A DNA stretch of 64,000 nucleotides, taken from the NCBI GenBank assembly GCA_951406725.2, contig OX597837.1, positions 21,638,001 through 21,702,000 on the forward strand. The letters run 5' to 3'. Below, piece after piece: positions 14,839 to 59,951 of the stretch. Every line of letters begins with the position of its first letter. Position 1 is the stretch's first letter. The translations under genes and the position numbers were made by a program. The notes under the pieces were generated by a model, which did not search any database, had not been told where the DNA came from, and saw only the letters and a program-made list of their open reading frames with translations. This stretch comes from Octopus vulgaris. Lineage: Eukaryota.

Positions 14839-15279
14839 AACAATAATAAATCTCAGAGCGAGTTATAAACAGTAGCTACAACACATCGTGACATTAGCCA
14901 TATTTAAATGGCAAATATACGTCACAATGTGTTGCAGCTACTGTTTATAACTCGCTCTGAGATGTATTATTGTTTGTTTACACTTTTTCGATATCAGTGT
15001 CTATCGATACTGGAAAAAGTATAAGTGTTTGTGAAGGGAACCTACTTCTCATCGACAACTGTGATTGTCACATGCCGATGACGGGTTAATACCTAGAAAC
15101 TCGAGTCCGTGTGTATCATAAGTTGAAGACAGGAAGGATGGCTTCCCTTTGCAAATGCTGATAGGGCACAGAAAGTGTGTCTATAGCCAGCTGCAGGAGG
15201 TGTCCTCCTGGGGCTACAAACTACAGTAGCATCCACCCTTAGGGGTTAGCCATATTTAAATGGCAAATATATGTCACAA
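14839..15279 (+). mobile_element. Penelope-type/retrozyme-like insert: 352-nt monomer, terminal direct repeat and inverted 5' fragment
   Basis: Direct repeat ttagccatatttaaatggcaaatata.gtcacaa at 14894 and 15246. Inverted repeat 14839-14892/14921-14974. Flanking aaaattattatt on both sides. Internal hammerhead. Confidence 0.75.
15069..15113 (+). ncRNA. Type I hammerhead ribozyme fold, U4C core
   Basis: cacatg CCGATGA cgggt-taat-accta GAAA ctcgag TC cgtgtg. Stem I is 6 bp, stem III is palindromic, site GUC. The closing pair of stem II is decayed. Confidence 0.7.
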
Positions 15280-15541
15280 AATTATTATTTTTTAAAAATA
15301 AATTATTATATATTGTGGTGTCTAAATAAGAAAGAGGCGCAGGTGTGGCTGTGTGGTAAGAAGCTTGCTTCCCAACCATATGGCTTTGGATTCAGTCCCA
15401 CTGTGTGGCACCTTAGGAAAATGTCTTCTGCTATAGCCTTGAGTTGACCAAAGGCATGTGAGCAAATTAGCTCGATGGAAACTGAAAGAAGCCCATTGTG
15501 TATGTATGTATGTGTGTGTGTGTGATGTGTGTGTGTGTGTG

Positions 15542-15582
<41 letters not shown>

Positions 15583-15709
15583 TATATATATATATATTTA
15601 TAGCTGAAATTTACAGAAAGACAAAAGATGAAGACAGGTGTATAAAGCAACAAACAGGTTGCTTATACACCTGTCTTCATTATATTTAATTTGCAATATA
15701 TTATTACTT

Positions 15710-15915
15710 ACTTTTTTACTTGTTTCAGTCATGTGACTGTGCCTATGCTGGAGCACCACCTTTAGTCAAGCAAATCGACCCCAGGACTTATTCTTTGTAA
15801 GTCTAGTACTTATTCTATCGGTCTCCTTTGCCGAACCACTAAGTTACAGGGACGTAAACACACCAGCATCAGTTGTCAAGCAATCTTGGGGGGACAAACA
15901 CAGACACACAAACAT

Positions 15916-15952
<37 letters not shown>

Positions 15953-16170
15953 CATATATATATACATATATATATATATACATATATATATACATATATA
16001 TATATGACGGGCTTCTTTAAGTTTCCGTCTACCAAATCCACTCACAAGGATTTGGTTGGCCCGAGGCTATAGTAGAAGACACTTGCTCAAGATGTCACGC
16101 AGTGGGACTGAACCTAGAACCATGTGGTTTGTAAGCAAGCTACTTACCACACAGCCACTCCTATACCTAT
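15710..16170 (-). mobile_element. SINE family A
   Basis: Reverse complement of the family A consensus. Confidence 0.85.
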
Positions 16171-16339
16171 ACTTAGTCAAAAGTTTGGAACATAAGTCTG
16201 AAAATTTTTTCTTCAAGATATTGGACCATTGGATCTGTTATTAGGTAAGTAGATCTCTACGTTGTATATATTTGAATCAAATTGTACTTGGGTATAACAA
16301 TTTGAATTTTTTAAAAATGTTCCAAACTTTTGGCCATGA

Positions 16340-16343
<4 letters not shown>
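16171..16343. mobile_element. Tc1-like MITE
   Basis: Terminal inverted repeats gtcaaaagtttggaacat / atgttccaaacttttggcc. Confidence 0.6.
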
Positions 16344-16409
<66 letters not shown>

Positions 16410-17029
16410 CCGATTATGGAAGATTAACAATCAGTGTGTCACACAAATTGAGGGGTAAAGTAAATAGTGAACTCTTATTAAGCCTTTGGCATTAAATCTG
16501 GCCATGTCTGACTCAAATATTCTACCTGTTTTATGTTCAAATTGACCACATTCAACCTCTCACACCAACCCTACAAAGCCGTTACAAAAATATATAAACA
16601 GGTCATCAAAATCTTGAAACTACAAGATAAAAGGTAAATGGGTAAAAACCCCCTTTCAGTCATGAACGACCATAGGATCACACCTAGAAATTTTCCATCT
16701 GAGGCACAAATCTGAGCAAGATTATTTATGGAAGACCAGCAGTTACCCATGCATACCAGCCTGCCCTCTCCATGCCACCAATGTTGTCCAAGGGAAAAGA
16801 AAAGACTAATACAGTTTGGCACCAGTGATGTTGCAACGCATTCCTACAGCTGAGTGAACTGGAGAAATGTGAAATAATGTGCCTTGCCCAAGAACACAAC
16901 TTACAGCCTGGTCCAGGAATCGAACTCACTACCTCATGATTGTGAGCCCAACGCTCTAACTACTTAGCCATGTGTTTTTAAGTTACAAGATAATGCATGA
17001 TTAATTCAAAACACTGTGAATAAATAAGC

Positions 17030-17803
17030 TTTACTCTTTTACTTGTTTCAGTCATTTGACTGCGGCCATGCTGGAGTACCACCTTTAGTCGAGCAAATCA
17101 ACCCCGGGACGTATTCTTTGTAAGCCCAGTACTTATTCTATCGGTCTCTTTTGCCGAACCGCCAAGTGACGGGGACGTAAATACACCAGCATCAGTTGTC
17201 AAGCAATGCTAGGGGGACAAACACAGACACACAAACATATACACACACATACATATATATCATCATCATCATCGTTTAGCGTCCGTTTTCCATGCTAGCA
17301 TGGGCTGGACGGTTCTACTGGGGTCTGTGAAGCCAGAAGGCTTCATCAGGCCCAGTCAAATCTGGCAGTGTTTCTACGGCTGGATGCCCTTCCTAACGCC
17401 AACCACTCCGTGAGTGTAGTGGGTGCTTTTTACGTGCCACCCGCACAGGTGCCAGACAGAGCTGGCAAACGGCCACAAACGGATGGTGCTTTTTATGTGC
17501 CACCGGCATGAGGGCCAGGCGAGGCTGGCAACGGACACGAAACGGGGCGGTGCTGGCAACGGTCGCAAAACGGAAAGTACTCTTACATGCCACCGGCACT
17601 GGTAACACATCTGCAATTTCCATTGATCGATTTCGATTCTGATCCTCACTTGCCTCAACAGGTCTTCACAAGTAGAGTTTTGTGTCCCAAGAAGGGAAGG
17701 TATGCATACATAGGCTGGCTCCATCCCATGTAGAAGGCCACGGGTTATGGACTCACTTGTCCTGCCGGGTCTTCTCGCGTACAGCACACTTCCAGAGATA
17801 TAC

Positions 17804-17840
<37 letters not shown>

Positions 17841-18007
17841 TACGACAGGCTTCTTTCAGTTTCTGTCTACCAAAATCCACTCACAAGGCTTTGGTCGGTC
17901 CGAGGCTATAGCAGAAGACACTTCCCCAAGATGCCACACAGTGGGATTGAACCCGGAACCATGTGGTTGGTAAGCAAGCTACTTACCGCACAGCCACTCC
18001 TGCGCCT
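17030..18007 (-). mobile_element. SINE family A with a family C element (about 17259-17797) nested in its microsatellite
   Basis: The family A tail and head flank a family C copy. Confidence 0.8.
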
Positions 18008-18292
18008 ATATACATTTAACAAAAAAAAAAATCTGAATGTTAAAGGGCTAGAGGTCCACAGTTTTGTGTGTTGGTGCTTTTATTCTTTTACTGAAAGTCT
18101 CACAAGAGTGATTTAAATATGGCCATAGGTATGGTTGCATGGTTAAAAAGTATTCTTTACATCCCTGTGGTTCCAAGGTCAGTCTCACTGTGTAGAAACT
18201 CAGGCAGGTATCTTGTATCATAGCCTTGAGTTGACACTAATCCCTTGTAATTGAAATTTAGTCGACAGAAATTATGCAGAAATCTGTTATAT

Positions 18293-18848
18293 ATTTCTTT
18301 ATTGCCCACAGGGGCCTAAACATAGAGGGGACAAACAAGGACTGGTACTTAATTAATCAACCCCAAAAGAATGAAAGGCAAAGTCTAACTCGGCAGAATT
18401 TGAACTCAGAAAGTAACAGCAGATGAAATACCTATTTCTTTACTACCCACAAGGGGCTAAATACAGAGAGGACAATCAAGGACAGACAATTGGATTAAGT
18501 CGATTACATCAACCCCAGTGCATAACTGGTACTTAATTTATCGACCCCAAAAGAATGAAAGGCAAAGTCTACCTTGGCGAAATTTGAACTCAGAAAGTAA
18601 CAGCAGACGAAATACCTATTTCTTTACTACCCACAAGGGGCTAAATACAGAGAGGACAATCAAGGACAGACAATTAGATTAAGTTGATTACATCAACCCC
18701 AGTGCATAACTGGTACTTAATTTATCGACCCCAAAAGGATGAAAGGCAAAGTCTACCTCGGCGGAATTTGAACTCAGAAAGTAATGGCAGATGAACTACC
18801 GCTAAGTATTTTGCCCAGCATGCTAATGATTCTGCCAGCTTGCCGCCC
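18293..18848 (-). mobile_element. SINE family B, chained copies (about 178-nt period)
   Basis: Unit tatttctttactacccacaagggg...gaactcagaaagtaa is repeated with a single head. Confidence 0.8.
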
Positions 18849-20569
18849 TGCAGAAATCTGTTATATGCTTGCCTGTATACATGCATGCATATATAAGTGG
18901 CAAGTGTCTTTTGCTATAGTGTTCCATTTGATCTGATCAATAGAATGGCCAGTTTGTGAAATTAATATGCAAGTGGCTGAGCATTCCACAGACACGTGCA
19001 CCCTTAACATATTACTCAGGGAGATTCAGCATGACACAGAACATAAGGCTGACCCTTTGAAATACAGGGACTGCTCATTTTTGGCAGCTGAGTGGACTGG
19101 AGCACTGTGAAATAAAATGACTTGTTTAAGGACACAATGCATCAGCAGGAATTGAACTCACAACCTTATGATTGTGAGTCGAATAACCTAACCACTAAAC
19201 CAGATGCCTTCACAATGCATAGAGATATATAATCTCATCATCATCATTTGATGTTCACTTTTCTATGGCTGCATAGGTTAGATGGAATTTGTTGAGGCAG
19301 ATTTTTCTATGGCTGGATGCCTTTCCTGTAACCAACCCTCACCTGTTACCAAGCAAGGTAATATTTCACCATGAAACACACACACACAAAAGGTCAACAA
19401 CACTGCTTGTACGACGGTGATACTCATTTACAATCATCAGATGATGTCAAGATAGGGATACACATAAGAACACATACAAAGGGGCTTCCTTCAGTTTCTG
19501 TCTACTAAATCCACTCACAAGGTTTCAGTCAGCTTTAGGCTATAGTAAAAAACACTTGCTCAAGGTGCCATGCAGCGGGATTGAACCCAAGACCAGATGG
19601 GTAGGAAGCTAACTTCTAAACCACACAGCCACATCTGTGCCTAAAACACACAAGCGCATTTTTTGTTTTTGCTTGCGTTTGCATTGTATGAGAGTCACTC
19701 GCTATGAGTGGTGGTCATGGTGGTGGTATTGTCACTATTACTACCAACAAATCGTCTGCTCACTTTGTACCAGGTAAAGGCATCCAGTTGTAAAACAATG
19801 CCTCAATAGCATATCCACCTAACTCATGCTAACATAGAAAAGCAGATGTAAAAACGAACAAACAAATGAATTTACACACACACATACACACACACGCACA
19901 CACACACGCACACACACACACACACACTAGTGGCCAAAATTCTAGATGCTTTCTTAAATATTTGTTACTGCTTGTTGGCTTGATGCCTTTTCTCTGCTCA
20001 TAATTTATTTTTGTAGTCATCTTCAAAAGATATTTTATTGTTCTCTAACCTATACTGGTTTAAAATTGATATTGTTCTTTGATATTTCAATACACTAAAA
20101 CACACATATATCAACCGAAACCAGAGGCATATGAAAGAGTATATAAAACAAAATCAGTTTATTTAGTTTACAATATGGTAGTTTGTAACAGTATTTAGTA
20201 GAATAACTTTTTTTGTTTTGATTACTTACATCAAGTCTTTTTGGCTTAGAAGTGATAAGATACTTCAACTAGTCAAGATTTATGATTCTAAACCAAACAT
20301 TGATGATTTCTTCAATTAACTGGATTTTGTTGCTTGGTCTTGAAACTGATACTAGTCTTTTGATTCTTGGCCATAAATTTTCTACCTTGTTGAGTTTGGG
20401 GCTGTTTCCAGGTCATTGTAAAATATTTATTTTGTTGTCTTTCAACCTTTCGTATGGGAATTTGTTGCATGTCATGGAGCAATGTCTTGCTGAAAAGTTG
20501 CTTTATCTGAATCACATGGAAGTTTAACTCTTGAAGAAAAAGAAATTTGGCTTCCAAATAATTACTCCG

Positions 20570-20850
20570 GAGTGATGTTACTTGACGGAGTGCCTAACTC
20601 GAGAGATAAAGGTGTCTTTTCCAGGTCAAGCTATTACTTTTCTGCGTAGAGAGGTCACAGCCCCAGTACTACAGACATGGTTAGAATATTGCAGGAAAGA
20701 ATCACGAGAGGGTTTCAAATCAAGCAAACTGGCAGAAGGCTTAGAATGAGATGGTTGGATAATATCGATAGTCTCTGTCGGTCATACTGTTTCTGATATA
20801 ATCCCATTGAGGAGGGAGGTGTCAGCGGACTCTAACCTTATGACCACCTC
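20570..20850 (+). mobile_element. RTE-type LINE 3' fragment
   Basis: Decayed reading frame with an RMRWLDNI motif typical of RTE C-termini. Confidence 0.5.
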
Positions 20851-21402
20851 AGGAACAGTGGGCAGAGAAGATGGATGGATACTTCCAGGGCACATAAAAA
20901 GCACACAGCCCACTCTGTAGAGTGGTTGGCATTAGGAAGGGCATCTAGTTGTAGAAACCATGGCACAACAGATAATTGGAGCCTGGACAGCTCCTGACTG
21001 ACCAGCTCCATGCCAAACTGTCCAACACATGCCAGCATGGAAAGAGGACACTAAACAATGATGATGAACTATGATTTCAAATGGCCAGCATCTCTGCCAG
21101 ACGGTCCACAATACAAAACAACAACCTTACACAGATGGAATGTTTCATCATTGTTGTAATACTACCAAGTGGGAAATTTTCATTTGACAAGGGCCCACAC
21201 ATGCAACTTTTGCCTCACACTTCTACAAACTGAAACTTGTTTTATCACATAAAACTTATTGCAAGTCTTTCTGCTGTCAACTCCTGTCATTCTCTTACCA
21301 TAAAAGATGTTTTCTTCTCTGGCAAACATCTAGATATCAGTCACTTGTAGGGACACCATATTTTGTTATGCAACCATAATATAATACAAAGTATATTAGA
21401 AG

Positions 21403-21740
21403 TTGCAGTGTGGAAGGTGTTTATAAGCCATTTAAGAAACACACAAAAGCCGCTAGATTCACTTTAACATTTAAATTTAATTTACCAAAATATTTTCGTC
21501 ACTTTGAGACCATGACCTGTTCACTGACTAAATTCCGTGCTGCATGGAATTTTGTCAGTGAACAAGTCGTGGTCTCAAAGTGATGAAAATATTTTGGTAA
21601 ATTAAATTTAAATGTTGAAGTGAATCTAATGGTTTTTGTGTGTTTCTTAAATGACTTATAAACACCTTCCACGCCGCAATTGTTTTCGTTCCAACACATG
21701 ATCTCAGATCAGGTCACTTGCTATGCAAGTACATCTCCAT
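21403..21740. mobile_element. Palindromic Penelope-type insert (about 138-bp arms, centre 21541) with a 3' extension
   Basis: 21403-21540 mirrors 21542-21679. Each arm carries a hammerhead-like fold. Confidence 0.7.
21548..21603 (+). ncRNA. Hammerhead-like fold with G3-C8 swapped core (mirror copy on minus strand, 21479-21534)
   Basis: aattttgtca GTGAACA a gtcg..tgat GAAA atat TT tggtaaatt. The mirror arm has stem II gtca/tgac. Confidence 0.5.
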
Positions 21741-22133
21741 AAATATATTAAAAGTATTACAAGTCAATATTGTGTCCTACTGTGTTAGCGGTGCTATTAA
21801 AGGTTAGCTCTACAGAAACTATGGTCAGCACTGACTTGTTAATTATGTCTCATATACGAATACATCTAATGTAAACAACAATGCAACTGAAAATGGAAAA
21901 ATAGGTATGGGTGTATTACTCTTTTATTCTTTTACTTGTTTCAGTCATTTGACTGTGGCCATGCTGGGGCACCGCCTTTACTCAAGCAAATCGATCCCAG
22001 GACTTATTCTTTGTAAGCCTAGTACTTATTTTATTGGTCTCAAACCACTAAGTTACAGGTACATAAACACACTAGCATCGGTTGTCAAGCGATGTTGAGG
22101 GGACAAACAAAGAAACACAAGCATGCATATACG

Positions 22134-22173
<40 letters not shown>

Positions 22174-24173
22174 TCTTCTTTCAGTTTCACAAGGCTTTGG
22201 TCGGCCCGAGGCTATAGAAGACACTTACCCAAGGCTACTTACTACACCTTTGTACATGTATATTTCAGGAGTCTTTTCTTCATCAGCACCCATCTAATCC
22301 ATTAATCATCCATGAACTTATTGCTTAAATAGCCACTAAATATAGCGGTATAACATTACTGGATAGACTAATTTGCATAATTAACACGTTCCTGACAGCT
22401 GGTATGTACATATGAATTACTTGTAGGGATACCATATTTCATTATGCAACCATAATATACAGCAAAGTATATTAAATGCTTTAGTCAATAACCTTAACAT
22501 GTGATCCAGATATCAGTTTAATTTTCTTTTAACTCTTAAGTTCTCCATCAAAGATTGTATACCTGACTGCTCTGTGTACTTCACCATTTTAATACCAACC
22601 CACCTGGAACCACCCTTAGTTTTATAATTAAAAACTTCATACTTTAAAATGATCTTAGTTAAAACCTTCCATCAAAATTCAATGTTAATTTATGTTCCAA
22701 ACACCAGCTTGATAATGACAAAATTTATTTTAACCCCTTTGTTACTGTATTTATTTTGAGATGCTCTGTATTTCTTTCAAATACTTTAAATATAACAAAG
22801 AATTTAGCAAAATAACTTAGTTCTCATTAAGCTAGTGTTAGAAACATAAATTGTGACTAAGGTTTGGTGGAATATTTTAATTCAAAACTTATGAAAACAA
22901 GACATTTTTACTCAGAGCCAAAGCCGGTTTCAGCCAGGTTGGTAATGAAAGGGTTAATGAATTTTTCATTAGTTTCAAACTGAATTGCTGGCACACAAAA
23001 ATCATCCAGTCCACACTGTTTAGTGGTTGGCATCTGGAAGGGCATCCAGCTGTAAAAGCCATGCCAAAGCTGACCTTTCCTGTGCTGGTGTCATGTAAAA
23101 AGTACTCAATCCACTCTGTAGGGTGGTTGATGTTAGGAAAGGTATCCAGCCATAAAGACCGTTCCAAAACAGACACAGAAGTCTGGTGCAGTCTTCTGCC
23201 TGGCCAGCTTCTGTCAAACCATCCAACTCATGGCACCATGGAAGGCAGACGATAAATGATGGCAATGATGATGGTGAATTGAAACAAAGGCAGTGAATTT
23301 CAGCAGAAATATGGTCACAGAATGGTCAAACTTGACCCCCAACAGATGATAATCATCATCCTTGTTTAACATTCACTTTTCCATGTTTGCATGGGTCAGA
23401 CGGAATCTGTTGAGGCAGATTTTCTGTAGCCATCTGTAGCCAACCCTTACCTGTTCTCAAGTAAGGCAATATCTTCCCCATAGCTAGACATATCTTTCAT
23501 TGAAGAATGGGAACAAACAACATTGCTTGTATACTGATAATGCTCGTTTATAAGAATCACATGATGCCCAGACAAGGGTGTACGCAAATGTGCACACGCA
23601 CACACAAACACATACACCAACACACACAGCAGCAGCTGCTTTCAGTTTCTTATTTCTTTATTGCCCACAAGGGGCTAAACACAGAGGGGACAAACAAGGA
23701 CAGACAAAGGGATTAAGTCGATTACATCGACCCCAGTACGTAACTGGTACTTTATTTATCAACCCCAAAAGGATGAAAGGCAAAGTTGACCTCAGCAGAA
23801 TTTGAACTCAGAATGCAGTGGCAGACGAAATACCACAAAGCATTTCGCCTGGCGTTCTAACGTTTCTGTCAGCTCATCGCTTCTTTCAGTTTCTGTCAAC
23901 CAAATCTACTGACAAGACTTTGGCTGGCCTGGTACTATAATAGAAGATACTTGCACAAGGTGCCACACATCACACAGTGAAACTGAACCTAAGACTAAAT
24001 GATTGGAAAGCAAGCTTTGTAACCACACAACCATGCCTGTTTGATGTATTTCTTATGGTGGTGTTAATTACTAACAGCCAATTGACCCATGTCAGTTATT
24101 TGGTTCACCTGTTTTGTTGGATTTTTTTTACTCCTGTTTTTGTTTTCAGTTCTCACAGTTTCATGTCTTTTAA

Positions 24174-24394
24174 CCCTTTAGTGTTCGCATTATTCTGCCA
24201 AAATTAATCCTTTTTTATCCACACTGCCTTGAACTAATCCTGCATTATCTTGTAGCTATGAGATTTTGATGAGGTAGCTGTTAATTTTTCAAACAATACT
24301 GTAGGGCTGGTGTGAGAGACCAGATATGGCCAGTCTGAACATAAAACAGGCAGAATACTTTTGGCCGGATATAGCCGGTTTAAATGCTAAAGGG
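24174..24394. mobile_element. piggyBac-type MITE (family 2)
   Basis: TTAA|CCCTTTAG...CTAAAGGG|TTAA. Relatives near 4237-4424, 12050-12740, 13430-14130, 47838-48053 and 57711-58251. Confidence 0.8.
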
Positions 24395-24595
24395 TTAAAG
24401 TGTAGACCAACCTTCCTTGTACTGGATTTTCATGCATCTTCTCCCAGTTTTCAGACTATTTGTTGAAAAATGAAGTCCCTTTTTGTTTGCTAACATAAAA
24501 GAATCTTCATAACAAATGTGGAAGGCCAAGTTCAAATACATGTACCATCAATGTTTGATCAGTTACCAGAAATATAGTGAGTGTGTATATATGAT

Positions 24596-24725
24596 GACTG
24601 GCTATCGACAATGGTGTGATTGAGTCTCAAATGCTGGTTGGCTATCTAATATAGTGTGACCATGCCTTAGTGCTGATTGGCTATGAAAAGTGGTACATCT
24701 TCACTACTCGATGTTGATTGGTTAT
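24596..24725 (-). promoter_or_regulatory. Four CCAAT-like boxes at about 40-nt spacing inside the Tc1 5' region
   Basis: g(a/g)(c/t)tgg(c/t)tat at 24596, 24636, 24675 and 24716. Two are exact CCAAT on the minus strand. Confidence 0.4.
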
Positions 24726-26712: not shown

Positions 26713-26728
26713 ACATATATGTTTTTTG

Positions 26729-27145: not shown

Positions 27146-27317
27146 GGGTTTTTTTCTTTTTTTTTTTTAGAAATGTGTATTCCCTGGTATTACATGGTAG
27201 AGTATGTCACTTCTCTTGTATAACAGGCTCAGAAGGAGTGCGGGGACAGAGAAAAACAGGACACTTAAGGAGTTCTTTTGTTTATAACAAAAACAAAACA
27301 AAAAATAAGGGACTTAC

Positions 27318-27374
27318 CTGATGACTGATCATATTCTCCAATAAACCTTCTGGTAAGGAATCGGACAGACAATG
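27318..27374 (-). CDS. RERG: RERG-family small GTPase, 57-nt coding exon (switch I): (A)LSVRFLTRRFIGEYDQSS
   Basis: Minus strand reads ctttag|CATTG...TCATCAG|gtaagt, phase 1/1. The peptide matches the RERG-type ALxVRFLTxRFIxEYD segment. Assignment is to the family; exact orthology is untested. Confidence 0.9.
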
Positions 27375-30633: not shown

Positions 30634-30683
<50 letters not shown>

Positions 30684-30780
30684 ATGGGAAAGTTTACAAA
30701 AATAAAGAAAAGACAAAGGCAGGTGGAGTACAAATAAACAAATGTATTAGTATAGCGCTCAGGAATAGAAATAGAACAAG

Positions 30781-30818
30781 TCTTTTACGTTTCGAGCCTA
30801 TGCTCTTCGACAGAAAGA
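30781..30818 (-). ncRNA. Minimal hammerhead-like fold, A6U core, in a Penelope-type insert (about 30685-30890)
   Basis: tcttt CTGTCGA a gagc-atag-gctc GAAA cg TA aaaga. Confidence 0.6.
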
Positions 30819-31252
30819 TACACAGAAATAAACAAGGCGAGAAACAAGGAGAGAAAAAAATGCGTGTAGGAGCTAACGATCTATCATATGTATGCATGTG
30901 TGTATTGATGCATGAATACAAAAGAAATAGGAACTAAAAATCTAGTCAAATACTCTTTAAGCACTCCGTATGAGTCTAACTTGGCTAACCAAATTGACCA
31001 GTGAAAGTTATTGCAATCCATGTAGTCAATCTGTTACATATCCAATTTGTAAATTCCAATATAAATTCAGTATAAAGTTACAGAGTACAGTGCAAGAACA
31101 CAAATGGATGAAGAATTATAAATTCTTAATCAGCTTACACAGATTTTGGATACATTGGTATTACATAATTCCATGATTTATGCAATACAAATGTAGCCAA
31201 AATGCATGGAAGCTGTTTAAAAACGTATAATCCTCCTTTTTATTTTTTATGT

Positions 31253-32245: not shown

Positions 32246-32335
32246 GGAAATGGAGATTTAAAATTGACATATTTTAAATGTAATTTATTAACATAATATT
32301 ATATTACAATTATAATATAATATGAATAGAAATAC

Positions 32336-32430
32336 AAATATTATTCCTACGAATTGTTTCGATTCATACCCAATAATGCATTTATATAAAATTCATACTT
32401 ATGGGTATGAATCTCATCAGGGAAATATTT
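32336..32430 (-). ncRNA. Type I hammerhead ribozyme, canonical core
   Basis: aaatatttcc CTGATGA gattcataccca...tgggtatgaatc GAAA c-aattc-g TA ggaataatattt. Stem II is 12 bp, stem I is 10 bp with a 2-nt bulge, site GUA. Confidence 0.8.
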
Positions 32431-32729
32431 GACAAAGTTAGACCATATTTCATGTAAGGATTGTTAATTTCTAGAGTAGACTGAATTAAATATGTCTGTA
32501 AGCGTGAACATCAATAATTTCAAAATATAATAAAAATAAAAAATTCAAATAAATAAAAACTAGTATAATGGTCATAAAATAGTCCTATGCACTTTTAATA
32601 ATACTAATCTAAAAATATTTCTGCCCATTATTTTTTATATAGAATATCTAAATAATAATATCATTTTTGGTTTTATCAATAGAGTCTATTGATAAAACCC
32701 AATCTATAAACATATAACACTTTCTACTC

Positions 32730-32850
32730 AAGCCCTGATGAGATTCTACCCAATATTATTCAAAATGCTATTTTATTATTATCATTGGATTTATTCCAGC
32801 CTTTGAATCTGCAATTATATATTGGATTGAAGTGAAATGTGTGTAGGCTT
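32730..32850 (+). ncRNA. Decayed type I hammerhead with long stem II
   Basis: aagcc CTGATGA gattctacccaatat...atattggattgaagt GAAA tgtgtg TA ggctt. tgtgtg is plausibly CpG-decayed cgcgcg. Confidence 0.6.
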
Positions 32851-32874
32851 TTTTGACTTTATTTTTGGTAGTAT

Positions 32875-35295: not shown

Positions 35296-35378
<83 letters not shown>

Positions 35379-35460
35379 AGCCAAACATGAAAGCACAAAA
35401 AACACAACACGAGGACATGGAACAAATATAGTATTATTGGACGCTCAGGAAAGAAGGAGG

Positions 35461-35495
35461 GTTTAACGTTTTGAGTGGTGCTCTTCGTCGGAAAC
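35461..35495 (-). ncRNA. Decayed minimal hammerhead, U4C core, in an insert at about 35375-35565 within (TA)n
   Basis: gttt CCGACGA a gag-cacca-ctc AAAA cg TT aaac. G12 is mutated to A. Confidence 0.5.
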
Positions 35496-35777
35496 ATAGG
35501 AGAAGGAAAGATCCAGAGAAGGGAAGACAGAGGAAAAAAATTGCCAACGGTACACACGCGGTCACATATATATATATATATGTGCACATATAAGCAAAGA
35601 TATTCACATGCATATACATATCCTCACACATACACACAACCCATAAGCACAGAAGTGGCTTATTGCTAAGATGTTCACTTTCCAACCACATGGTACCTTG
35701 GGCTAGAGTCTTCTACTATAGCCCTGGGCTACTGAAAGCCTTGTGAGAGCAGACATAGCTGCTGGAAGCTGAAAGAA

Positions 35778-39214: not shown

Positions 39215-40125
39215 CTGCAAAATTCAAAAGTGGAGATTTCAGCCTTGAAGATGAAGATTGAATAGGACATCCAGTTGAGTTTGATAAGCTCCTTGAGGCA
39301 TTACTTGAAGAAAATCTTGCATTATAAGTTGAAGAATTGGCAATAAAGCTTAGTTCAAACCATACAATTGTTCATCGTCATCTTCAACAACTTGGAAAGG
39401 TTCCTAAACTTCGAAAATGGGTGCCTCATGAATTGCCCAAAAGCAACTGCAAATCCCAAGTTGACAACTGCTCTTCTCTCCATTTTCGGGAACTCATTTC
39501 ACCCTTCTTGGATAGACTTGTAACGAAAAGGGGAAAAGGGGAAAAGCTCAACCACAACCGAAAATGGAACTTCATGGGGAAAAAGGTTCTTCTCTCTATC
39601 TGGTGGGATTGCAAAAGAGTAATTCACTTTGAATTTTTACCACCTAATGCAACAATCAATGCTCAAATCTACTGTCAGTAATGAGAGCATTTGAACCAAG
39701 CTTTGAAGAAAAAAAGACCTGCTTTAGTGAATCAAAAAGAAGTGATGTTTCATCAGGACAATGTGCGTCACCACACAGCAAAGATCACATCATAGAAGAT
39801 TGAAGAGCATGGTTGAGAAAAAAATTCCTCATCCACCTTATTCTCCCAACCTTGCTCCTTCAGACTACCATTTGTTTCATAATTTACAGAATCATTTGGG
39901 GGACATAATTTTCACAAGCCAGGAAGAGGTCAAAACTGACATTTCAGAATTTTTCGTTTTGAAGCCAAAAGAATTTTACATTGATGGGATTAAAAAGCTT
40001 GTAAATAGATGAAAGTCATAGATAATTAGGGAAAGTACATTGATGATTAAATTTCAATTAAATATTACATTTGATCACTTATTTTCTTTATTCAAAATTC
40101 CGACAGAACTCATGGGATGATCTGA
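39215..40125 (+). mobile_element. 5'-truncated mariner with decayed transposase
   Basis: WVPHEL, KKVLLSIWWD, FHQDN and PHPPYSPNLAPSDYHLF motifs with stops and frameshifts. The 3' TIR ends at TA. Confidence 0.9.
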
Positions 40126-41990: not shown

Positions 41991-43275
41991 TCAGGTTGTC
42001 AAGAAAGTTCTTGCGGTGTTTAACCTTTAAATTCAGATGCACATATCTCGGCTCAAACAAAACTTTATTAATCGAAATAAGCACCATTAGAATCAGCACA
42101 CTTTTGCCAATGCGAAACAAGTTTATTTATGCCAGTAACATAAGAATCCTGCATTCTGGTGGTGATGAAGTCACTGAAGGCGTGTTTGGCATCGTCTTGG
42201 TTTTTGAAGCAAATCTCACACAGGAAGTTGTTGAGATGCTTGAAAAAATGGTAGTCGATAGGCTAGAGGTCTGGTGAGTATGGCAGATGAGGTAGAGTTT
42301 CATAGCCCAATTCGTTTAACTTCTGCAGGGTCAGTTGTGCAACGTGTGGTCGAATGTTGTCATGGAGAAGAATTGGTCCTTTTCTATTGACCAATGCTGG
42401 CTGTTGTTGTCGGTGTTTCTTATGCATTTCATCCATTTACTGACAGCACTTCTCCACCATAATGGTTTTGCCTGGATCCAAAAAGCTGTGATGGATGAGA
42501 CCAGTCACAGACCACCAAACAGTCACCATGACCTTCTTTCGCTGCAACTTTGGTTTCAGGAAGTGCCATGGAGCTTCACTGGCATCCAACCACTGGACTG
42601 AGCATTGCCGGTTGTCGTAAAGAATCCACTTTTCATCACAAGTCACAATCTGGTCGAAAAATAGGTCGTTCTTGTTGCGTAAAAGAAGGGAAGACGACAC
42701 TTCAGAACAGTGTTTTTTTGGTAGTCGTTCAATTTATGCAGCACCCATTTCTCAAGTATTTTTGTTTTTCCAATCTCTTTCAAGTCATTGGAAATTGTTG
42801 TATACATTACGTCTAATTCAGAAGCAAGCTCTTGAACAGTTGTGCATGGATTGGCTTCCACAAAGGCTCATAGTTGATCGTTGTCAACATCTGATGACTG
42901 ACCACTACGCTTATCATCTCAAGACTCTCATCACCGCTACGAAATTTCTTGAACCACCATTGTGCTGTACGTTCATTGGTGGTTCCTGGGTCAAATGCAT
43001 TGTTGATATTGTGAGCTGTTTTAGCAGCTTTTCGGCCTAGCTTGAACTGGAATTAAAAAAATTGTGCGAATTTGCTTTTTGTCTGTGTCATATTCAACGT
43101 TCAGCAAAAAATGGCCTAATTAGTCAAATAGAAAGAAAATAACACAATTAGATAGAGTGAAAAACGGGCTTTAAAATGATATATAAAGTCAAAGTAATTT
43201 AACAAAAATTAATTTGCAAATACATCATTTAAAGCCCAAATTAAAAATTCCGCAAGAACTTTCTTGACAACCTAA
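41991..43275 (-). mobile_element. Full-length (about 1285 bp) mariner with pseudogenised transposase
   Basis: TA|tcaggttgtcaagaaagttcttgcgg ... ccgcaagaactttcttgacaacctaa|TA. Motifs KWVLHKL, IVTCDEKWILYDN and KKVMVTVWW. Confidence 0.93.
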
Positions 43276-51069: not shown

Positions 51070-51132
<63 letters not shown>

Positions 51133-51934
51133 TTGTGTGTCTGTGTTTGTCCCCCTAGCATTGCTTGACAACCGATGCTGGCGTGTTTACGTCCCCATCA
51201 CTTAGCGGTTCGGCAAAAGAGACCGAGGGAATATGTACTGGGCTTACAAAGAATAAATCCCGGGGTCGATTTGCTCGACTAAAGGCAGTGCTCCAGCATG
51301 GCCGCAGTCAAATGACTGAAACAAGTAAAAGATTAAAGAGTAAAGAGAGTATTGCATTTTAGGTTACATATAATTACCTTACTTCACAAAACCTTCAGAT
51401 CACCAAACAGATGATGCATTCAATAAAGGTGGCAAGCTGGCAGAATCGTTACTGCACCAGATAAAATTCTTTCAGCTCTTTAAGATTTTAAGTTCTGAGT
51501 TCAAATGCCACTGCGGTCAATATTGTCTTTCATACTTTCAGGATTGATAAAATAAGTATCAGTTGAGCACTCAAATCTGTTGGCCTTGAGTTGAAATTAG
51601 AAAGAATAATTCAATAGGGCTAGGCCAAGTAATTAATAACCAAATAATTTCAGAAAAGAACAAAAACCAGAATTAATTGTTTCTAATTGAGACACAAAGC
51701 TTGAAATTTTGTTGGGGAGATCATTAGTTGATTAGGTCAACTGCAATACTTGATTTCAAGTTTATTTTGTTGATCCCCTACAAAAATGAAAAGTAATATG
51801 GTTACAGACAAGATTTGAACTCAGGACAAACAGAGTTGAAATAAATACTAACAGACATTTATCCAATGCTCTTAAAACAGGTGCTCTGTCAGTTACAGCA
51901 GCAAGGGTTCCAATTGATCCGATCAACGGAACCA

Positions 51935-52375
51935 ATCCAAACAGATCAGGTGCTAAAGCATAACAGACCAGACCTAATGGTGGCCAACAAGATGCACATG
52001 TGCTATACAGTTGATGTTGCATGGCCCTTTGACCCACAAATAGTTAAGAAGGAAGGCAAAGAAAATAGATAAATACAACCCTCTTAAGTATGAAATAGCC
52101 CGACTATGGAAAATGAAGAAAATGAAGATAGTGTCAGTTATTGTTGCGTTCTCAGGGACAGTATCAGAAGGCATCAAGAGGAATACAAAAGGAATTCGAA
52201 TAGGGTACCCAGTAGAAATGTTACAAAATGGTTGTCTCCTTGGTACAGCCAGAATAATCAGGAAGGTATTAGATAGCTGAAAAGAACAAACAGCATGGTA
52301 CCGGAGGCTGCAGACAGCAACCCTACTGTGCATGTAAGAGTCCAGGAGTATCAACAAAACCTGTGATACAAAGAA
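51935..52375 (+). mobile_element. R4/Dong-type non-LTR retrotransposon 3' fragment (RLE domain)
   Basis: HNRPDLMV...VDVAWPFD...KY.PLKYEIARLW...CLLGTARIIRKVL* with frameshifts. Confidence 0.75.
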
Positions 52376-53184
52376 ATAATCCTTTTTTACTATAGGCACA
52401 AGGCTTGAAATTTGGGGGAAGGGGGCCAGTGGATTAGATTGACTCCAGTACGCAACTGGTACTTAATTTATCGATCATCCCCCACCCCCAGGATGAAAAG
52501 CAAAGTTGACCTCAGTGGAATTTGAACTCAGAACATAAAGACAAAATACCACTAAGCATTTCGCCCCACATGCTAACGATTCTGCCAGCTCGCTGCCTTG
52601 ATTAAAAGAAATAATAATAATAATAATTCTGTCTACTACTGGCAGAAAGCATGAAATCTGGGGCATGTGGACGAGTCAATGACAACATCCCCAATATTTG
52701 ACGAGTATTTATTTAATCAGCCTTAAAAGGATGAAAGGCAAAGTTGATCTCAGAGGAATTTGAATCCAGAATGAAATGTCAAGAAATGCTGCTAAGCATT
52801 TTGTCCATTGTGCTAATCAATTTTGTCAGTTTGCCGCCTTTATAAGTGTTTCAAATTTTTGGCACAAGGCTGGCAATTTGAGAAGAGAGGCTAAATTGAT
52901 TGCATCAAGCCCTAGTTCTCAAATGGAACTTATTAAGTGATCCCAAAAGGATAAAAGGCAAAGTTAACCTTGATGGAATCTGAACTCAGAACATAAAGCA
53001 ACAGAAGAAATGCTACAAAGCACTCTGTCCAATGTGCTAATGACTCTGCCAACTCATTACTTTAACAATCCTTTCTATTATAGGCATGGGGTCTGAAATT
53101 TTGAGGGAGGGAACTAGTCTATAACATCAACCCCAGTACATTATTTACATTCGACAGATATTTGTCCTCATCTTGTTTGTTGTT

Positions 53185-53230
53185 AACACAACGTTTCGGC
53201 TGATATACCCTCCAGCCTTCTTCAGGTGTC
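53185..53230 (-). ncRNA. Minimal type I hammerhead (inverted copy)
   Basis: gacac CTGAAGA a ggctg-gagggtatat-cagcc GAAA cg TT gtgtt. Confidence 0.72.
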
Positions 53231-53473
53231 TTGGGGAAATTTCAAACCTAGGTTCTCATTCCTAGGGTATTTTTCGATGTTATTATTATTATTATTGTTA
53301 TTGTTCAGGTCATTGCTTGGAATGCCCACGGACATATGGCATAGTGGTTAAGAGCACAGGCTACTAACCCCAAGATTCCGAGTTCGATTGCAAGCAGTGA
53401 CCTAAACAATAATAATAATAACAACATCAAAAAATACCTTAGGAATGAGAACCCAGGTTCGAAATTTCTCCAA

Positions 53474-53516
53474 GACACCTGATGAAGGCTAGAGGGTATA
53501 TCAGCCGAAATGTGTT
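53474..53516 (+). ncRNA. Hammerhead copy with a 3-nt deletion in stem III
   Basis: gacac CTGATGA a ggcta...cagcc GAAA t gtgtt. Confidence 0.6.
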
Positions 53517-54680
53517 AACAACAAACAAGATGACAAATATCCATCAAATGTAAGGAATGTAAATAATCTACATAATTCCTCATCTCTTAAATATAGAACT
53601 GTATCAATCCCAGTGTTTCACTGGTACTTAATTTGTTGACCCCAAAAGGACGAAAGGTAATGTTGACCTCAGCAGAATTTGAACTCAGAATATAAAGAGA
53701 CAAAGAAATGCTATTAAGCAATTTTATGTGCTAATGACTGCCAGCTCATCACTTTAATATTAATAACTCTTTCTATTGTAGGCTCAAGGCCTTAAAAGTT
53801 GATCTTGGTGGAATTTGAACTCAGAATGCAAAGGCAGATGAAATGTTGCTAAGCATTGTCTGGCATGCTAACAATTCTGCCAGCTCACTGCTTTAGTAAT
53901 AAACAATAATGATAATAATGGTTTCAGATTTTGGTACAAGGCCAGCAACTTCAGGGGAAGGGTAGGTCGATTACACCAATTCTAGTGTTCAACTAGTACT
54001 TATTTTATCAACCCTGAGAGGAGGGGAGGCAAAGTTGATCTCAGTGGAATTTGAACTCAGAATGTATAAGATGGACAAAATGCCACTAAGCATTTTGCCT
54101 GGTCAGCTAATAATTTGGCCAGCTCACCATAATCATCATCATCATCGATTAACGTCCGTTCTCCATGCTAGCATGGGTTGGACGGTTCGACCAGGGATCT
54201 GGGAAGCCAGAAGGCTGCACCAGGCTCCAGTCTTATCTGGCAATGTTTCTACAGCTGGATGCCCTTCCTAACGCCAACCACTCCATGAGTGTAGTGGGTG
54301 CTTTTTATGTGCCACCCGCACAGGTGCCAGGCGAGGCTGGTGCCTCAACAAGGGAGGAAAGGCATGCATAAGTGGGCTGGGCTCTAATAATAATAATAAT
54401 AATGATAACCTTTTCTACTAAAGGCACAAGGCCTGAAATTTGTGGGGAGGTGACTAGTTGATTACATCGACCCCAGTGTTTCACTGGTACTTAATTTATT
54501 GACCCTGAAAGGATGAAAAGCAAAGTTGACCTCAGCAGAATTTGTACTCAGAACATAGTGGACAGACAAAATACCACTAAGCATTTTGCCCAGTATACTA
54601 ACAATTCTGCCAGCTTGCTGCCTTAAAAATAAATAAATAAATAATAATAATAATAATGATAATAATAATAATAATAATGA

Positions 54681-55113
54681 TTTTGTTTATTGGCCACAAG
54701 GACCCAAAACATGGAGGACGAGTTACAACACAACAAAAAAATTACAACAAAAACATGTGGGGTTAACATAAATCAAGGGGGAGATACTACCACATTAAAG
54801 GATATAACAAGATATATAATAGAAAGTAGAGAAATAAATAATTAGAATCCCTAACAGTGGGGCAGTCCAGTTGGGGTAATCTGGGGTAAATCCCCCCACA
54901 AAAATTTTGGGTTACACTGCCATCTCCAAGGCATGGGAAAGTACCTTCTTCCAGTTTCTTTTCTCCTGCTTAGAAAAGCATATTCAGAGTAGATCTATTC
55001 AGTCTCACCAGCCTTGCCACTCTAGCCAACCTTTTGATAAACACACTAGAAGGCAGAACCTCCCTCTCTGCCCTCACCTTCCTTTTCAAATATTTGAAGA
55101 AATTGATGAGGGC
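54681..55113 (-). mobile_element. Tx1/L1-like LINE 3' end in (TAA)n
   Basis: ORF end ALINFFKYLKRKVRAEREVL...MLF*, 3' UTR ending ccttgtggccaataaa. Related 3' UTR at 55795-56062. The clade call is tentative. Confidence 0.5.
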
Positions 55114-55162
<49 letters not shown>

Positions 55163-56064
55163 CCTAGGCCCAGGAGTGGCTGTGTGGTAAGTAGCTTGCT
55201 TACCAACCACATGGTTCTAGGTTCAGTCCCACTGCGTGGCACCATGGGCAAGTGTCTTCTACTATAGCCTCGGGCCCACCAAAGACTTGTGAGTGGATTT
55301 GGTAGACGGAAACTGAAAGAAGCCCATCATGTATATGTATATATATATGTATGTGTTTGTTTGACTGTGTTTGTCTCCCCAACATCGCTTGACAACCAAT
55401 GTTGGTGTGTTTACATCCCTGTAACTTAGCGGTTCGGCAAAAGCAGACCGATAGAATAAGTACTAGGCTTACAAAGAATAAGTCCTGGGGTCGATTTGCT
55501 TGACTAAAGGTGGTGCTCCAGCATGGCTGCACTCAAATGACTGAAACAAGTAAAAGAGTAAAAGAGAGTAGTGACAGGCACAAAGCCTGAAGCTTGGGGA
55601 AAGTAATTATGTCAATTACATCGACCACAGCGCACAACTGGTACTTATTTTATCGATCCTCAAAAGATGAAAGGCAAAGTCAACCACGGTGGAATTTGAA
55701 CTCAGAACGTAAAGTGAGAAGAAATGCCACTAAACATTTTTTCCAGTGTGCTAATGATGATTCTGCTTAATAATAATAATAATAATAATAATAAATTCAT
55801 TTTATTGGCCACAAGGGCTGACAAACATGATTGGAAAACATAAAGGGACAAAACAGGACGAAAAGTTACAAAGGGTTTTGTCCGTTTGTGAAAAAAATCG
55901 TGTAAAAACAGTGTAACAATCAAATAATATAACAATGAAAAATTCCCAATAGGGGGAGGTGTTACGAAAGGTTCCTGGTGGAAAAACCCATAAAAGCCAA
56001 CGGGAGCCTGGTCAAAAGGCGGGTAGAGAGCCCAGAAGGTGGAACATCTAAAGATTCCCATTTG

Positions 56065-56390
56065 GTGTACGCTGCAGAATGTACGAAACACAACTTAATC
56101 TATGTTGGTTGCACAACACAACAATTAAACAAAAAGGTTTAATGGGCACAGATTCGACGTCAGGCACAATAACAGTAGTTCGACAGAACTTGCTGAACAT
56201 TTCATTTCAAACGTCTGCAATTTTGAAAAAGACTTGAAAGTGTATATTCTCAGAAAATATTCTGAATCTGCTTCACTTTCACTTCTTAAAATGCATGAGG
56301 ACAAATAGGTTTGCTGGTTATTAACATCACACCCTGGAGGAATGAATAAGACGACAGGAGAATATCATCAAATTTATACAAAACTACTAC
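56065..56390 (+). mobile_element. Penelope-like element GIY-YIG endonuclease relic
   Basis: VYAAECTKHNLIYVGCTTQQL, frameshift, RFNGHR...LAEHF...EDK*V..L.T..PGGMN. Confidence 0.8.
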
Positions 56391-56409
56391 TACTACTAAT
56401 AATAATAAT

Positions 56410-56703
56410 AAGACCTGGAAGTAGAGGTAACTCGAATGTGGAATCTAAAAACAGAAACAATCCCTATCATAGTAAGTGCAATAGGTATGATAAAAAAATA
56501 TTCAGAAAAATCCATAACAAAAACACCAGGACTTACAAACACATATAACATACAGAAAATTGCACTACTAGGCACTGCACACATCCTACGCAGAACACTT
56601 TCAATACAATAACCATCAGAGCACCACAACAAATCACAACACATACAGAGCTGCGCTCGGTAGTGAAGTGAAAGCACGTTATAAAAATAAAACTACTGAA
56701 TAT
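56410..56703 (+). mobile_element. R4/Dong-type element 3' end inserted in (TAA)n
   Basis: DLEVEVTRMWNLKTETIPIIVSAIG...IQKIALLGTAHILRRTL* with TAA repeats on both sides. Confidence 0.8.
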
Positions 56704-58699
56704 TAATAATAATAATAATAATAATAGACAATAAGCTTGTTTTGCAAAACAAGTGTAAGCGAATGTGTGTATGAGTGTGTATATGTGTTCATGTGTTTAC
56801 AAGCACATCTTTATCCACAGTAGCATCAATCCATGTCATTTTGTCCATGATTGCATGGGTTAGATGACAGGATATCACCATCCCTTGTGGGTCTTTGATA
56901 TCAGAGGAAACAGCCAATCCTTATTTTTTGTGTACAATGTGTCTTTTTGTGGAGGCGCAATGGCCCAGTGGTTAGGGCAGCGGACTTGCGGTCAGAGGAT
57001 CGCTGTTTCGATTCCCAGACCAGGCGTTGTGTGTGTTTATTGAGCGTAAACACCTAAAAGTTCCATGAGGCTCCGGCAGGGGGTGGTGGTGACTCCTGTT
57101 GTACTCTTTCGCCACAACTTTCTCTCACTCTCTCTTCCTGTTTCTTGAGTAACGCTGTGATGGACTGGTGTCCCGTCCAGCTGTGGGGAACACATACGCC
57201 ACAGAAACCGGCAAACCAGGCCCATGAGCCTGGCTAGGCTTGAAAAGGGCAACGTTTATCGTTATGTGTCTTTTTGTGCTTTTTCCCTTTTATCACTATT
57301 GCATGCCCTCCATCACCAAACAATTTACAAAATGGACCATGTACATATTATTGTACCACCAGCACTAGGAAAGTTATCTGTAAGGACCACATGAGCAAAA
57401 ACCTTCAGTCGTTTCTGAAATACCAGAGAGGGAGTTTAATGAAGAAAACTCAACTAAAATACAGGTACCTAATGTCAGTAGAAGTAACTAATATAAAGGT
57501 ACCTCATAACTCTAATTTTATTATAAGGGTACCTCACAACTGAAGGTACATATGTTTTGAGTTCAGATTCCACTGAGGTTAACTTAGCCTTTTATCCTTT
57601 CAGAGATGATGAAATAAGTATCAGTTGAACATTGGGGTCAATATAATTGACGAGCCCCCTCCACCAACATCTCAGGCCTTGCGCCTATAGTAGAAAAGAT
57701 TATTTTTTAACCCTTTAGCATTCAGATTATTCTGCCAAATTGAATGCTTATTTATTCACACTGTTTCTTCCTTCTTGAGCCATGCCTGGCTCATAAGGGC
57801 TGGTTTCCTGGTTTCCATGGCATATAGGTTCCCCACCTGGATGGGACAGCGGTCCATTGCAGGTGAGCTGCAAGATGCGGAAGGAAAGAGTGAGAGAAAG
57901 TTGTGGCAAAAGAGCCAGCAGAAGTTTGCCATTACCTTCTGCCAGAGCCGCGTTAAGCTTAGGTGTTTCGCTCATAAACGCACACATAACCCGGGTCTGA
58001 GATTCGAACCCGCGATCCCTTGACCACGAGACCACTGCTCTAACCACTAGGCCATGTGCCTCCACAACTATTTATTCACATTAGTTTCAATTAATTATTC
58101 ATTATCTCCTAGATTCAAAAATTTTGATGATGTGATTGTTTATTTTTAGAATAACATTGTATGACAGGTGGGAGAGGCCAAATCTGGCCGGTTTGAACAT
58201 AAAACAGGTACAATATTTGGGCCCGATATGGCTGGTTTAAACCCTGAAGGATTAAGGTGACTAGCAGGCAGAATTGTTAGAGCAGACAAAATGCTAGTGT
58301 TGTTTCTTTCAATTCATTTACCTTCTGAGTTCAATACCAATCAGCTACCGAAGAAGGCAAGCTGGCAGAATGGTTAGCATGCCAGATAAAATGCTTAGTG
58401 GCGTTTCATCTGTCTTTATTTTCTGAGTTCAAATTCTGCCGAGGTCGACTTTGCCTTTCAATCTTTTGGAGTCAATGTAATAGACTTACCCCCTTATCTG
58501 AAATTGCTAACTTCATGCCAAAATTTGAAACCAATATCCATCAGCTACTGAATAGGTATGATGTGGTGGACAAATGATGTTAGATGTACAAGACTAAGAA
58601 AATATTTATAGGGAGAGTTTACGAAAAAACAAAAAACGAAGACAGGTGGTGTACAAAACAAACAGATGTATTAGTATAACGCTCAGGAATACAAAAAGT

Positions 58700-58735
58700 C
58701 TTTTACGTTTCGAGCCTACGCTCTTCCACAGAAAG
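58700..58735 (-). ncRNA. Minimal hammerhead-like fold, A6U core (same family as 30781; insert about 58610-58760)
   Basis: cttt CTGTGGA a gagc-gtag-gctc GAAA cg TA aaag. Confidence 0.6.
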
Positions 58736-58836
58736 GGACACAGAAAAAACAAGGAGAGAAATATACATCTTTAAAATTGATACCATTTGTAACTAATTAT
58801 ATTCTTCATGTTGTGCAAGTTATGTGTGTGTGTGTG

Positions 58837-59050
58837 TGAGAGGGTACTGAAAAGTTCCTGGCTTTAAGGGCAACGTGAAAGGCCTGGTTGGAGGCCCAAC
58901 CTTCTGAGCTCTTTTACAGGGCTTAGAAAAACTGAAGGACCACTGCAATAAGTGTGTGAATCTAAGGGAAATATGTTGAATAAAATCATTATTAACTGAT
59001 CCTCCTGTGTTTTCTTTTACCCAAAGCCAGGAATTTTTAGCACCTCCTCA
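58837..59050. mobile_element. mariner-type MITE
   Basis: TIRs gagagggtactgaaaagttcctggcttt / aaagccaggaatttttagcacctcctc. Confidence 0.65.
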
Positions 59051-59518
59051 TGTATATGTGTGTGCATGCATGCATGTGTGTGTGTGTGCTAAAACACAAA
59101 ACCCTTGACCCTTGAGTCACTCTGTTGCTTCTGCCACAAGGCCAGTAGTTTCAGGGTAGTGGGTAAGTTGATTACATCAACACCAATGTCCAAGTGGTAC
59201 TTATTTTATCTACCCCAAAAGGATGAAAGACAAAGTCAACCTTGATAGCATTTGAACTCAGAATGTAAAGACTGACAAAATGCCACTAAGCATTTTGTCT
59301 GGTGCATTAACAATTCCACCAGCTCACTGCCTTAGTTTCTGCCAAATATTAATAAAATATAGGAGTGGCGGTGTGGTAAGTAAGCTTGCTTAACAACCAC
59401 ATGGTTCTGGGTTCAGCCCCACTGCGTGGCACCTTGGGCAAGTGTCTTCTACTATAGCCTTGGGCCAACCAAAGCCTTGTGAGCGGATTTGGTAGACGAA
59501 AACTGAAAGTAGCCCGTC

Positions 59519-59557
<39 letters not shown>

Positions 59558-59898
59558 TGTGTGTGTGTATATGTTTGTGTGTCTGTGTTTGTCCCCCCAA
59601 CATTGCTTGACAGCCGATGCTGCTGTGTTTACGTCCCTGTAACTTAGCGGTTCAGCAAAATAGATTGATGGAATAAGTACTAGGCTTACAAAGAATAAGT
59701 CCTGGGGTCAATTTGCTTGACTAAAGGCGGTGCTCCAGCATGGCCACAGCCAAATGACTGAAACAAGTAAAAGAGAGTAAAAGAATATACACACTCATGT
59801 TTTGAATCACCAAACCTATATGTGTTGTGTGTGTGTGTGTGTGCATATATATATATATACATATATATATATACTTTATTTAAAAGCAGCAGAAATTC

Positions 59899-59951
59899 AA
59901 CAAAACCTGTTACTCGGAGTTTCACGTTCCCGTTCGTCGGACAGTTTTGTT
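59899..59951 (-). ncRNA. Type I hammerhead, U4C core, in an inverted-repeat insert (59874-60070)
   Basis: aacaaaactgt CCGACGA acg-ggaa-cgt GAAA ctc-c-gag TA acaggttttgtt. Confidence 0.72.

Follow-up and report, generated by a model that had tools for sequence, protein, structure and literature searches.

How does one intronic stretch of octopus DNA come to hold eleven small hammerhead folds with four kinds of catalytic core, and are the unusual cores decayed or inherited? The stretch is a 64,000-nucleotide (nt) window of Octopus vulgaris (assembly GCA_951406725.2, contig OX597837.1, positions 21,638,001 to 21,702,000 of the forward strand), the whole of which was analysed and in which position 1 is the first letter; the folds sit in retroelement insertions of the Penelope type. 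Judged from sequence, the folds are real and belong to a genome-wide set of predicted Penelope-type hammerheads with inherited non-canonical cores. We think it probable that the eleven are minimal type I hammerheads in the pseudo-long terminal repeats (pLTRs) of eight retroelement families, and that their variant cores were inherited and likely selected for slow predicted cleavage assisted by a dimer partner or a protein.

Variant cores as family traits

The eleven folds make up nine insertions, two pairs being the inverted arms of one insertion each, and belong to eight families (A to H) whose representatives gave no pairwise blastn match at E<=0.05; by eye, short motifs are common to A and B and to G and H. 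The order of the type I minimal hammerhead, with paired stems, was found in all eight families, in young copies or in majority lines. The core is canonical (CUGANGA) in F, G and H, A6U in A, G3/C8 in C and U4C in D and in parts of B and E. The first-pass annotation had described these eleven folds and cores in at least six unrelated carriers, with palindromic stems III and inverted and tandem insertions of the Penelope type, and had proposed that a strict motif search would miss the variant cores; every fold is present and these points held up, whereas its three carriers of U4C proved to be D, B and E with U4C as only a subfamily state in B and E. For each family the 25-30 best loci were fetched, a set biased toward the query, and copies in other loci were counted separately.

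Family A carries A6U in two window copies that differ at the free position N7, as had been claimed. The copy at 30781..30818 (minus strand, core start 30813, element about 30647-30887) is of an older subfamily with N7=C, and the copy at 58700..58735 (minus strand, core start 58731, element 58603-58761) has N7=G. Of 48 copies not picked by their core, U6 is present in 45 and A6 in one; the 48 count both window copies, three that belong to a single duplicated segment, and those of 13 loci retrieved with upstream sequence. In a set of 14 loci retrieved with only the upstream region, every one has U6. Family C forms an inverted insertion at 21403-21748 with G3/C8 in both arms, the left-arm fold at 21484..21528 (minus strand, core start 21524, predicted cut after 21488) and the right-arm fold at 21551..21601 (plus strand, core start 21558, predicted cut after 21594), the latter with a stem I of 7 base pairs (bp) and a palindromic stem III; a 3' tail is found on the right arm only. 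G3 and C8 are present in 10/10 copies not chosen by core, and the canonical core in 0 of 39 selected arms. The family D fold at 15069..15113 (plus strand, core start 15075, predicted cut after 15107) has U4C, a stem II flanked on each side by an extra base and an 8-nt palindrome as stem III, and lies in an insertion (14844-15277) of more than one unit with a short 5' inversion. C4 was read in 57 of 58 rows of this family; nearly all of the rows were selected, and overlap between tandem loci made some count double. Copy-specific decay as the origin of the variant cores is rejected for A, C and D by these copy counts.

The other two U4C families are mixed. The family B fold at 35461..35495 (minus strand, core start 35491) is a decayed copy with G12A in an element (35326-35581) flanked on both sides by (TA)n runs; in the family, C4 was found in 10 and U4 in 12 of 23 copies, two of which are cross-matches to A. 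The family E fold at 59907..59944 (minus strand, core start 59940) has a near-palindromic stem III and is the left arm of an inverted insertion at about 59872-60072, the right arm of which lacks a core and has a 70-nt tail; C4 stands in 5 and U4 in 6 of 11 copies, and C4 in 7 of the 8 readable copies fetched by upstream sequence. The alignments make U4C the state of a young subfamily in B and E, the other copies being canonical. Because U4C creates a CpG, decay can restore the canonical core.

The canonical families have four folds in the window. In family F, the intact fold at 53185..53230 (minus strand, core start 53225) is the left arm of an inverted insertion at about 53141-53603, and the fold at 53474..53518 (plus strand, core start 53479) is decayed, with 3 nt deleted at stem III and the predicted cut site. 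The family G fold at 32344..32424 (minus strand, core start 32420, element about 32285-32632) has a 12-bp stem II with a long loop. The family H fold at 32731..32849 (plus strand, core start 32735, element about 32683-32854) has a long stem II and is decayed, with changes of the CpG type at the base of stem II and in stem III.

A variant core was also found in a young Penelope-like element elsewhere in the genome, with a unit of 4.27 kb (L313:1400-6500, minus strand; also L314, L315, L283-L312). Its 454-codon upstream frame overlaps by about 90 nt a 775-residue frame encoding reverse transcriptase (RT) plus a GIY-YIG endonuclease, with an A-rich run at the overlap where a frameshift is possible. 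All 150 of 150 scored endonuclease matches are identical (100%), and the pLTR hammerhead has U4C in 32/32 folds read, in 28 of 30 loci; the variant core is thus present in a recently multiplying element. The young element and family D are covered by contigs from four presumed RNA runs; single contigs span the full young unit, and from these contigs neither ends nor strand can be read.

Genome-wide occurrence

Two descriptors were used. The first, a relaxed type I pattern, accepts the canonical core, one change at any core position or a 3-8 swap that stays paired; it matched 7 window folds versus 0-2 (mean 1.0) in 12 dinucleotide shuffles. The second, with room for an extra base at each side of stem II and for loops to 40 nt, also found 7, with the fold at 15075 gained and that at 32420 lost. 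Eight of the 11 window folds pass at least one descriptor, and the three that fail both (32735, 35491 and 53479) are decayed members of families intact elsewhere. An Rfam scan at E<=10 gave no hammerhead among the matches listed (150 of 194).

The second descriptor was then run on a blind sample of 800 kb from 80 positions, with 6 shuffles. The sample held 22 folds in single-change classes, at about 18 independent places, versus a shuffle mean of 1.3: nine U3/A8, six U4C, three A6U, two canonical, one G3/C8 and one C3U, so that 20 of the 22 intact minimal folds are non-canonical. Six double-change matches were at shuffle level (mean 3.3) and were dropped. For the 2.8-Gb genome this extrapolates to about 72,000 folds (44,000-112,000), a rough figure that omits long-loop and decayed copies, so canonical folds may be under-counted; motif and Rfam counts would badly under-report such predicted ribozymes in this genome. 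The window, which was chosen for its folds, has 7 descriptor matches in 64 kb versus 1.8 expected from the blind sample, and the next 120 kb beyond it has 2; a locus-specific cluster is not supported, the feature being genome-wide. Across the loci read, the number of unrelated carriers is at least six for U4C and several for U3/A8.

Further carriers were seen along the way. More U3/A8 families lie at L355:8667-9406, L268:7050-8385, L234, L353 and L193, one of them in tandem units of about 360-380 bp, and more unrelated U4C carriers with palindromic stems III of 8-9 nt at L029:638, L058:1059, L076:2836 and L362:78-534. One repeat gives a match with G3/C8 plus A6G twice (L249:3609 and L375:1271), in a class that is at shuffle level.

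Relation to published hammerheads

Small hammerhead variants associated with Penelope-like elements, about 150,000 of them, are said to have been reported by Lunse, Weinberg and Breaker in 2016. Of the features found here, the hammerheads of Penelope elements, the U4C and U3/A8 cores and the extra base that follows A9 have been published before. The pLTR hammerheads of Cervera and de la Pena 2014 (PMC4209133) are type I with a tiny palindromic stem III, as here, and share the extra base after A9, the mostly solo copies, the inverted pairs and U3/A8; their Hydra row has an extra base on both sides of stem II, as in family D. The text of that paper gives U3/A8 as the sole core change, and the supplement searched holds no U4C, A6U or G3/C8; its largest counts are about 4,000-9,000 per genome, against the roughly 72,000 extrapolated here, most of them non-canonical. 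Perreault et al. 2011 (PMC3088659) described U3/A8, A6C (under 0.1 per min) and a viroid U4C as natural, weakly active variants. In the available part of that paper the variants are rare single cases, with A6U and G3/C8 unnamed; in the present genome these two are the fixed state of families with many copies. Family C carries naturally the G3/C8 pair that Frangieh et al. 2024 (PMC11167929) engineered as a mutant in the Anolis Poseidon element PAc. Octopus Naiad elements are listed without canonical hammerheads in the part of Craig 2021 that was available. Our literature search, the coverage of which was partial, found neither a family-fixed A6U nor a natural G3/C8, and supplements may hold them. 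The family-fixed A6U, G3/C8 and U4C cores are likely to be natural ribozyme variants missed by standard searches.

Carriers of the folds

In four of the families, sequence upstream of the fold leads into protein frames. In family A, a long C-rich region and then a GIY-YIG frame lie upstream in 4/13 new loci and in the blind locus L375, the endonuclease pieces matching Pfam GIY-YIG at E 0.0011 and 0.01. Family F has upstream endonuclease-like and RT frames (RVT_1, E 3.3e-8), family H an endonuclease frame in one locus (L224; GIY-YIG E 0.0026), and family E an upstream endonuclease-like frame in 3/11 new loci, of which a piece matches that of H at 43% over 37 residues. The RT and C-terminal endonuclease are present as fragments in A, F, H and, in part, E; in the young element, outside the window, they are complete. 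A C-x4-C-xx-C linker in family A and in the young element resembles that of Neptune and Nematis by description (Craig 2021). The short A, E, F and H copies would mostly be 5'-short ends of Penelope-like elements that bear open reading frames. Endonuclease frames beside family C (L081) and family D (L115) were set aside as parts of other elements that host the C and D insertions.

The insertions also look like those of Penelope-like elements, with inverted 5' arms, partial tandems, optional 3' tails and AT-rich or (TA)n targets in C, D, E and F, both in the window and at many loci; for such elements Craig 2021 describes (TA)n targets, inversion of the 5' arm and a choice between two 3' ends. 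The 5' ends cluster: 25 of 45 family C arms start 20-26 nt upstream of the core, and ends lie near 80-85 nt upstream in B and 65-72 nt upstream in many A copies, positions that we infer to be transcription starts or RT stops. In the longest family C copy (L079), a branch-point-like motif and a pyrimidine-rich stretch ending in AG stand where most C copies begin, possibly an intron end or a transcription start.

Family F has in addition a tRNA-like segment (53322..53407, plus strand), which sits between the stop codon and the hammerhead, upstream of an (AAT)n run. By the usual consensus, the segment has A-box and B-box-like motifs. The window copy and 9 of 30 loci begin at a short palindrome that lies 9-16 nt before the A box, and a subset made by RNA polymerase III, resembling short interspersed elements (SINEs), is possible. 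ARAGORN called a tRNA in 0 of 8 loci, and Rfam gave none in the other copies. A plain tRNA SINE was rejected as an account of family F, its copies running upstream into the RT and endonuclease frame.

The first-pass annotation took the carriers to be non-autonomous retroelements; a rival reading in that line makes them independent elements of the retrozyme kind, spreading as small circular RNAs. The strongest case for this is family D, which has 5 tandem units of 350-352 bp at one locus with one hammerhead each, as well as copies of more than one unit. Published non-LTR retrozymes derive from Penelope pLTRs and repeat in tandem with a unit length of about 350 bp and a single type I hammerhead per unit (PMC7229834; bioRxiv 10.64898/2026.07.22.740005), which fits D; those searches used canonical or minimal descriptors, that of the 2026 paper having Y at position 4, and most of the families here are ends of ORF-bearing elements. 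Family B shows 6 tandem units of 178-197 bp at one locus, again with one hammerhead each, and the clustered 5' ends of family C would also suit small circles. Contigs from two of the presumed RNA runs join D head to tail, although tandem genomic arrays suffice to explain them. Since A, E, F and H run into protein frames and B has long upstream extensions resembling those of A, the view is improbable for the carriers as a whole; for D alone we consider it rather probable, and for C plausible with the balance slightly against it. The claim of non-autonomous carriers is thus not supported for A, E, F and H; D, and possibly B and C, look like stand-alone short units.

Probable selection on the cores and a possible mechanism

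In family A, where a column counts as variable when it varies by 12% or more, 1/29 core and stem columns are variable versus 22/90 in the flanks (p=0.008); only one of 126 columns varies more than N7 (A27/U11/C7/G3), and H17 varies too. Family B has 3/29 versus 48/123 (p=0.002), and in family F N7 ranks 1 of 139 columns. N7 differs between subfamilies while the core stays constant, the contrast being significant in A and B and seen at N7 only in F; kinship of the copies and alignment noise in the flanks mean that the p values overstate the difference. The variant cores are likely to be inherited traits still under selection for slow, assisted self-cleavage.

Published work suggests how such folds could be used. 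Small Penelope-associated hammerheads have a reduced stem III and cleave as dimers (review, PMC6765202). In PAc, RT starts inside the RNA, catalytic mutants still insert, hammerhead cleavage needs protein, and C3G/G8C partly rescues it (PMC11167929). Published Penelope hammerheads need dimers or protein and are dispensable for insertion in vitro (PMC4209133, PMC11167929). The optional 3' tail and the uncut RNA template of PAc are as here, and so, in the mechanism that we propose, would be its internal RT start. We suggest that the element protein would begin reverse transcription downstream (3') of the hammerhead, on RNA that is for the most part uncut, and that it would stop or start 20-250 nt upstream (5') of the fold; tens of thousands of short pieces with a hammerhead would be the outcome. 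Where a transcript holds tandem units, two of its folds could pair through the palindromic stem III and cut weakly, and because only low activity would be needed, positions 4 and 6 and the 3-8 pair could tolerate change in master elements. A stem III of four bases cannot close within a monomer in the families that have one. Among predicted dimers, the double hammerhead is the most stable fold for D and the young element, and for E it lies 1.6 kcal above the minimum.

A number of observations speak against this reading. The predicted cut site lies inside every genomic copy, which means that the RNA copied had not been cut, and changes at U4 and A6 lowered activity in published tests (PMC3088659). 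In A, B, C and F other dimer folds are favoured, the double hammerhead lying 5-12 kcal above the minimum. Family F has 2/33 constrained versus 7/93 flank columns variable (p=0.57), N7 of family B is not variable after CpG removal, and the copies are related, so the column counts reflect few independent events. As to the carriers, the endonuclease pieces of A and H score below the curated Pfam cut-off, the endonuclease-like pieces of E and F have no Pfam match, and no frame was seen in the fetched B, C, D and G loci, for which no upstream-directed search was made.

The main rival builds on the first two of these points: the variant folds would no longer cut and would be kept as structural signals, for RNA dimerisation or as a protein binding site, which would let positions 4 and 6 drift. 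A palindromic stem III favours dimers whether they cut or not, and the lizard element inserts with catalytic mutants and shows no RNA sequencing ends at the site (PMC11167929). A structural role alone, however, does not readily account for G5, G12, A13, A14, the 3-8 pair and NUH being fixed while N7 and H17 vary, for a 3-8 swap that keeps the catalytic pair, the double mutant of which partly rescues cleavage (PMC11167929), or for only four of about twenty possible core classes recurring in the blind sample; we regard it as unlikely, though less so than the circular-RNA view of all carriers. Neutral founder mutations in a few master copies, with no ribozyme needed and no selection now, would suit the presence of both U4 and C4 in B and E, the missing stem-versus-flank difference in F and an in vitro amplification that needs only the 3' region (PMC11167929), but are very improbable given that U6 is kept in A subfamilies of 70-99% similarity through at least three changes of N7, that U4C and U3/A8 recur in unrelated carriers as above, and that G3/C8 takes two coupled changes.

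Inherited cores selected for slow assisted cleavage thus remain our preferred reading. A wider version, which we put forward tentatively and hold to be somewhat doubtful, is that A6U and G3/C8 are naturally active cores fixed in high-copy families, that about nine in ten intact minimal hammerheads of this genome are non-canonical, and that animal genomes may hide a large pool of protein-assisted ribozymes whose relaxed cores are tuned slow so that the element gets copied. The cores form a natural allelic series (canonical, U4C, U3/A8, G3/C8 and A6U). With sister subfamilies one core base apart and a young intact element with its protein, the function of Penelope hammerheads becomes directly testable, as does, in the same series, whether the element protein supplies the missing activity.

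The host gene

All 11 folds are intronic in a minus-strand gene for a Ras-family GTPase, which we take to be RERG-like. The first of its coding exons falls outside the window, about 8 kb beyond the end, and the second (27318..27374), third (9224..9297), fourth (5203..5412; Pfam Ras, E 2.4e-13) and last (2727..2893) lie on the minus strand of the window, the last two with approximate borders. The earlier count of seven folds sense to the GTPase transcript is right and carries no signal, since 7/11 is a chance outcome (p=0.55). No sign was seen that the folds regulate the host gene, and the single intronic copies in its pre-mRNA are likely inert passengers. In the G3 motif region (9224-9297, minus strand) the protein reads MDT and then RSL, the usual AG being replaced, and it may be an atypical Ras-family member. 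The window also holds mariner-type transposase fragments (Pfam Transposase_1) at 39328-39678 (plus strand) and 42440-42733 (minus strand).

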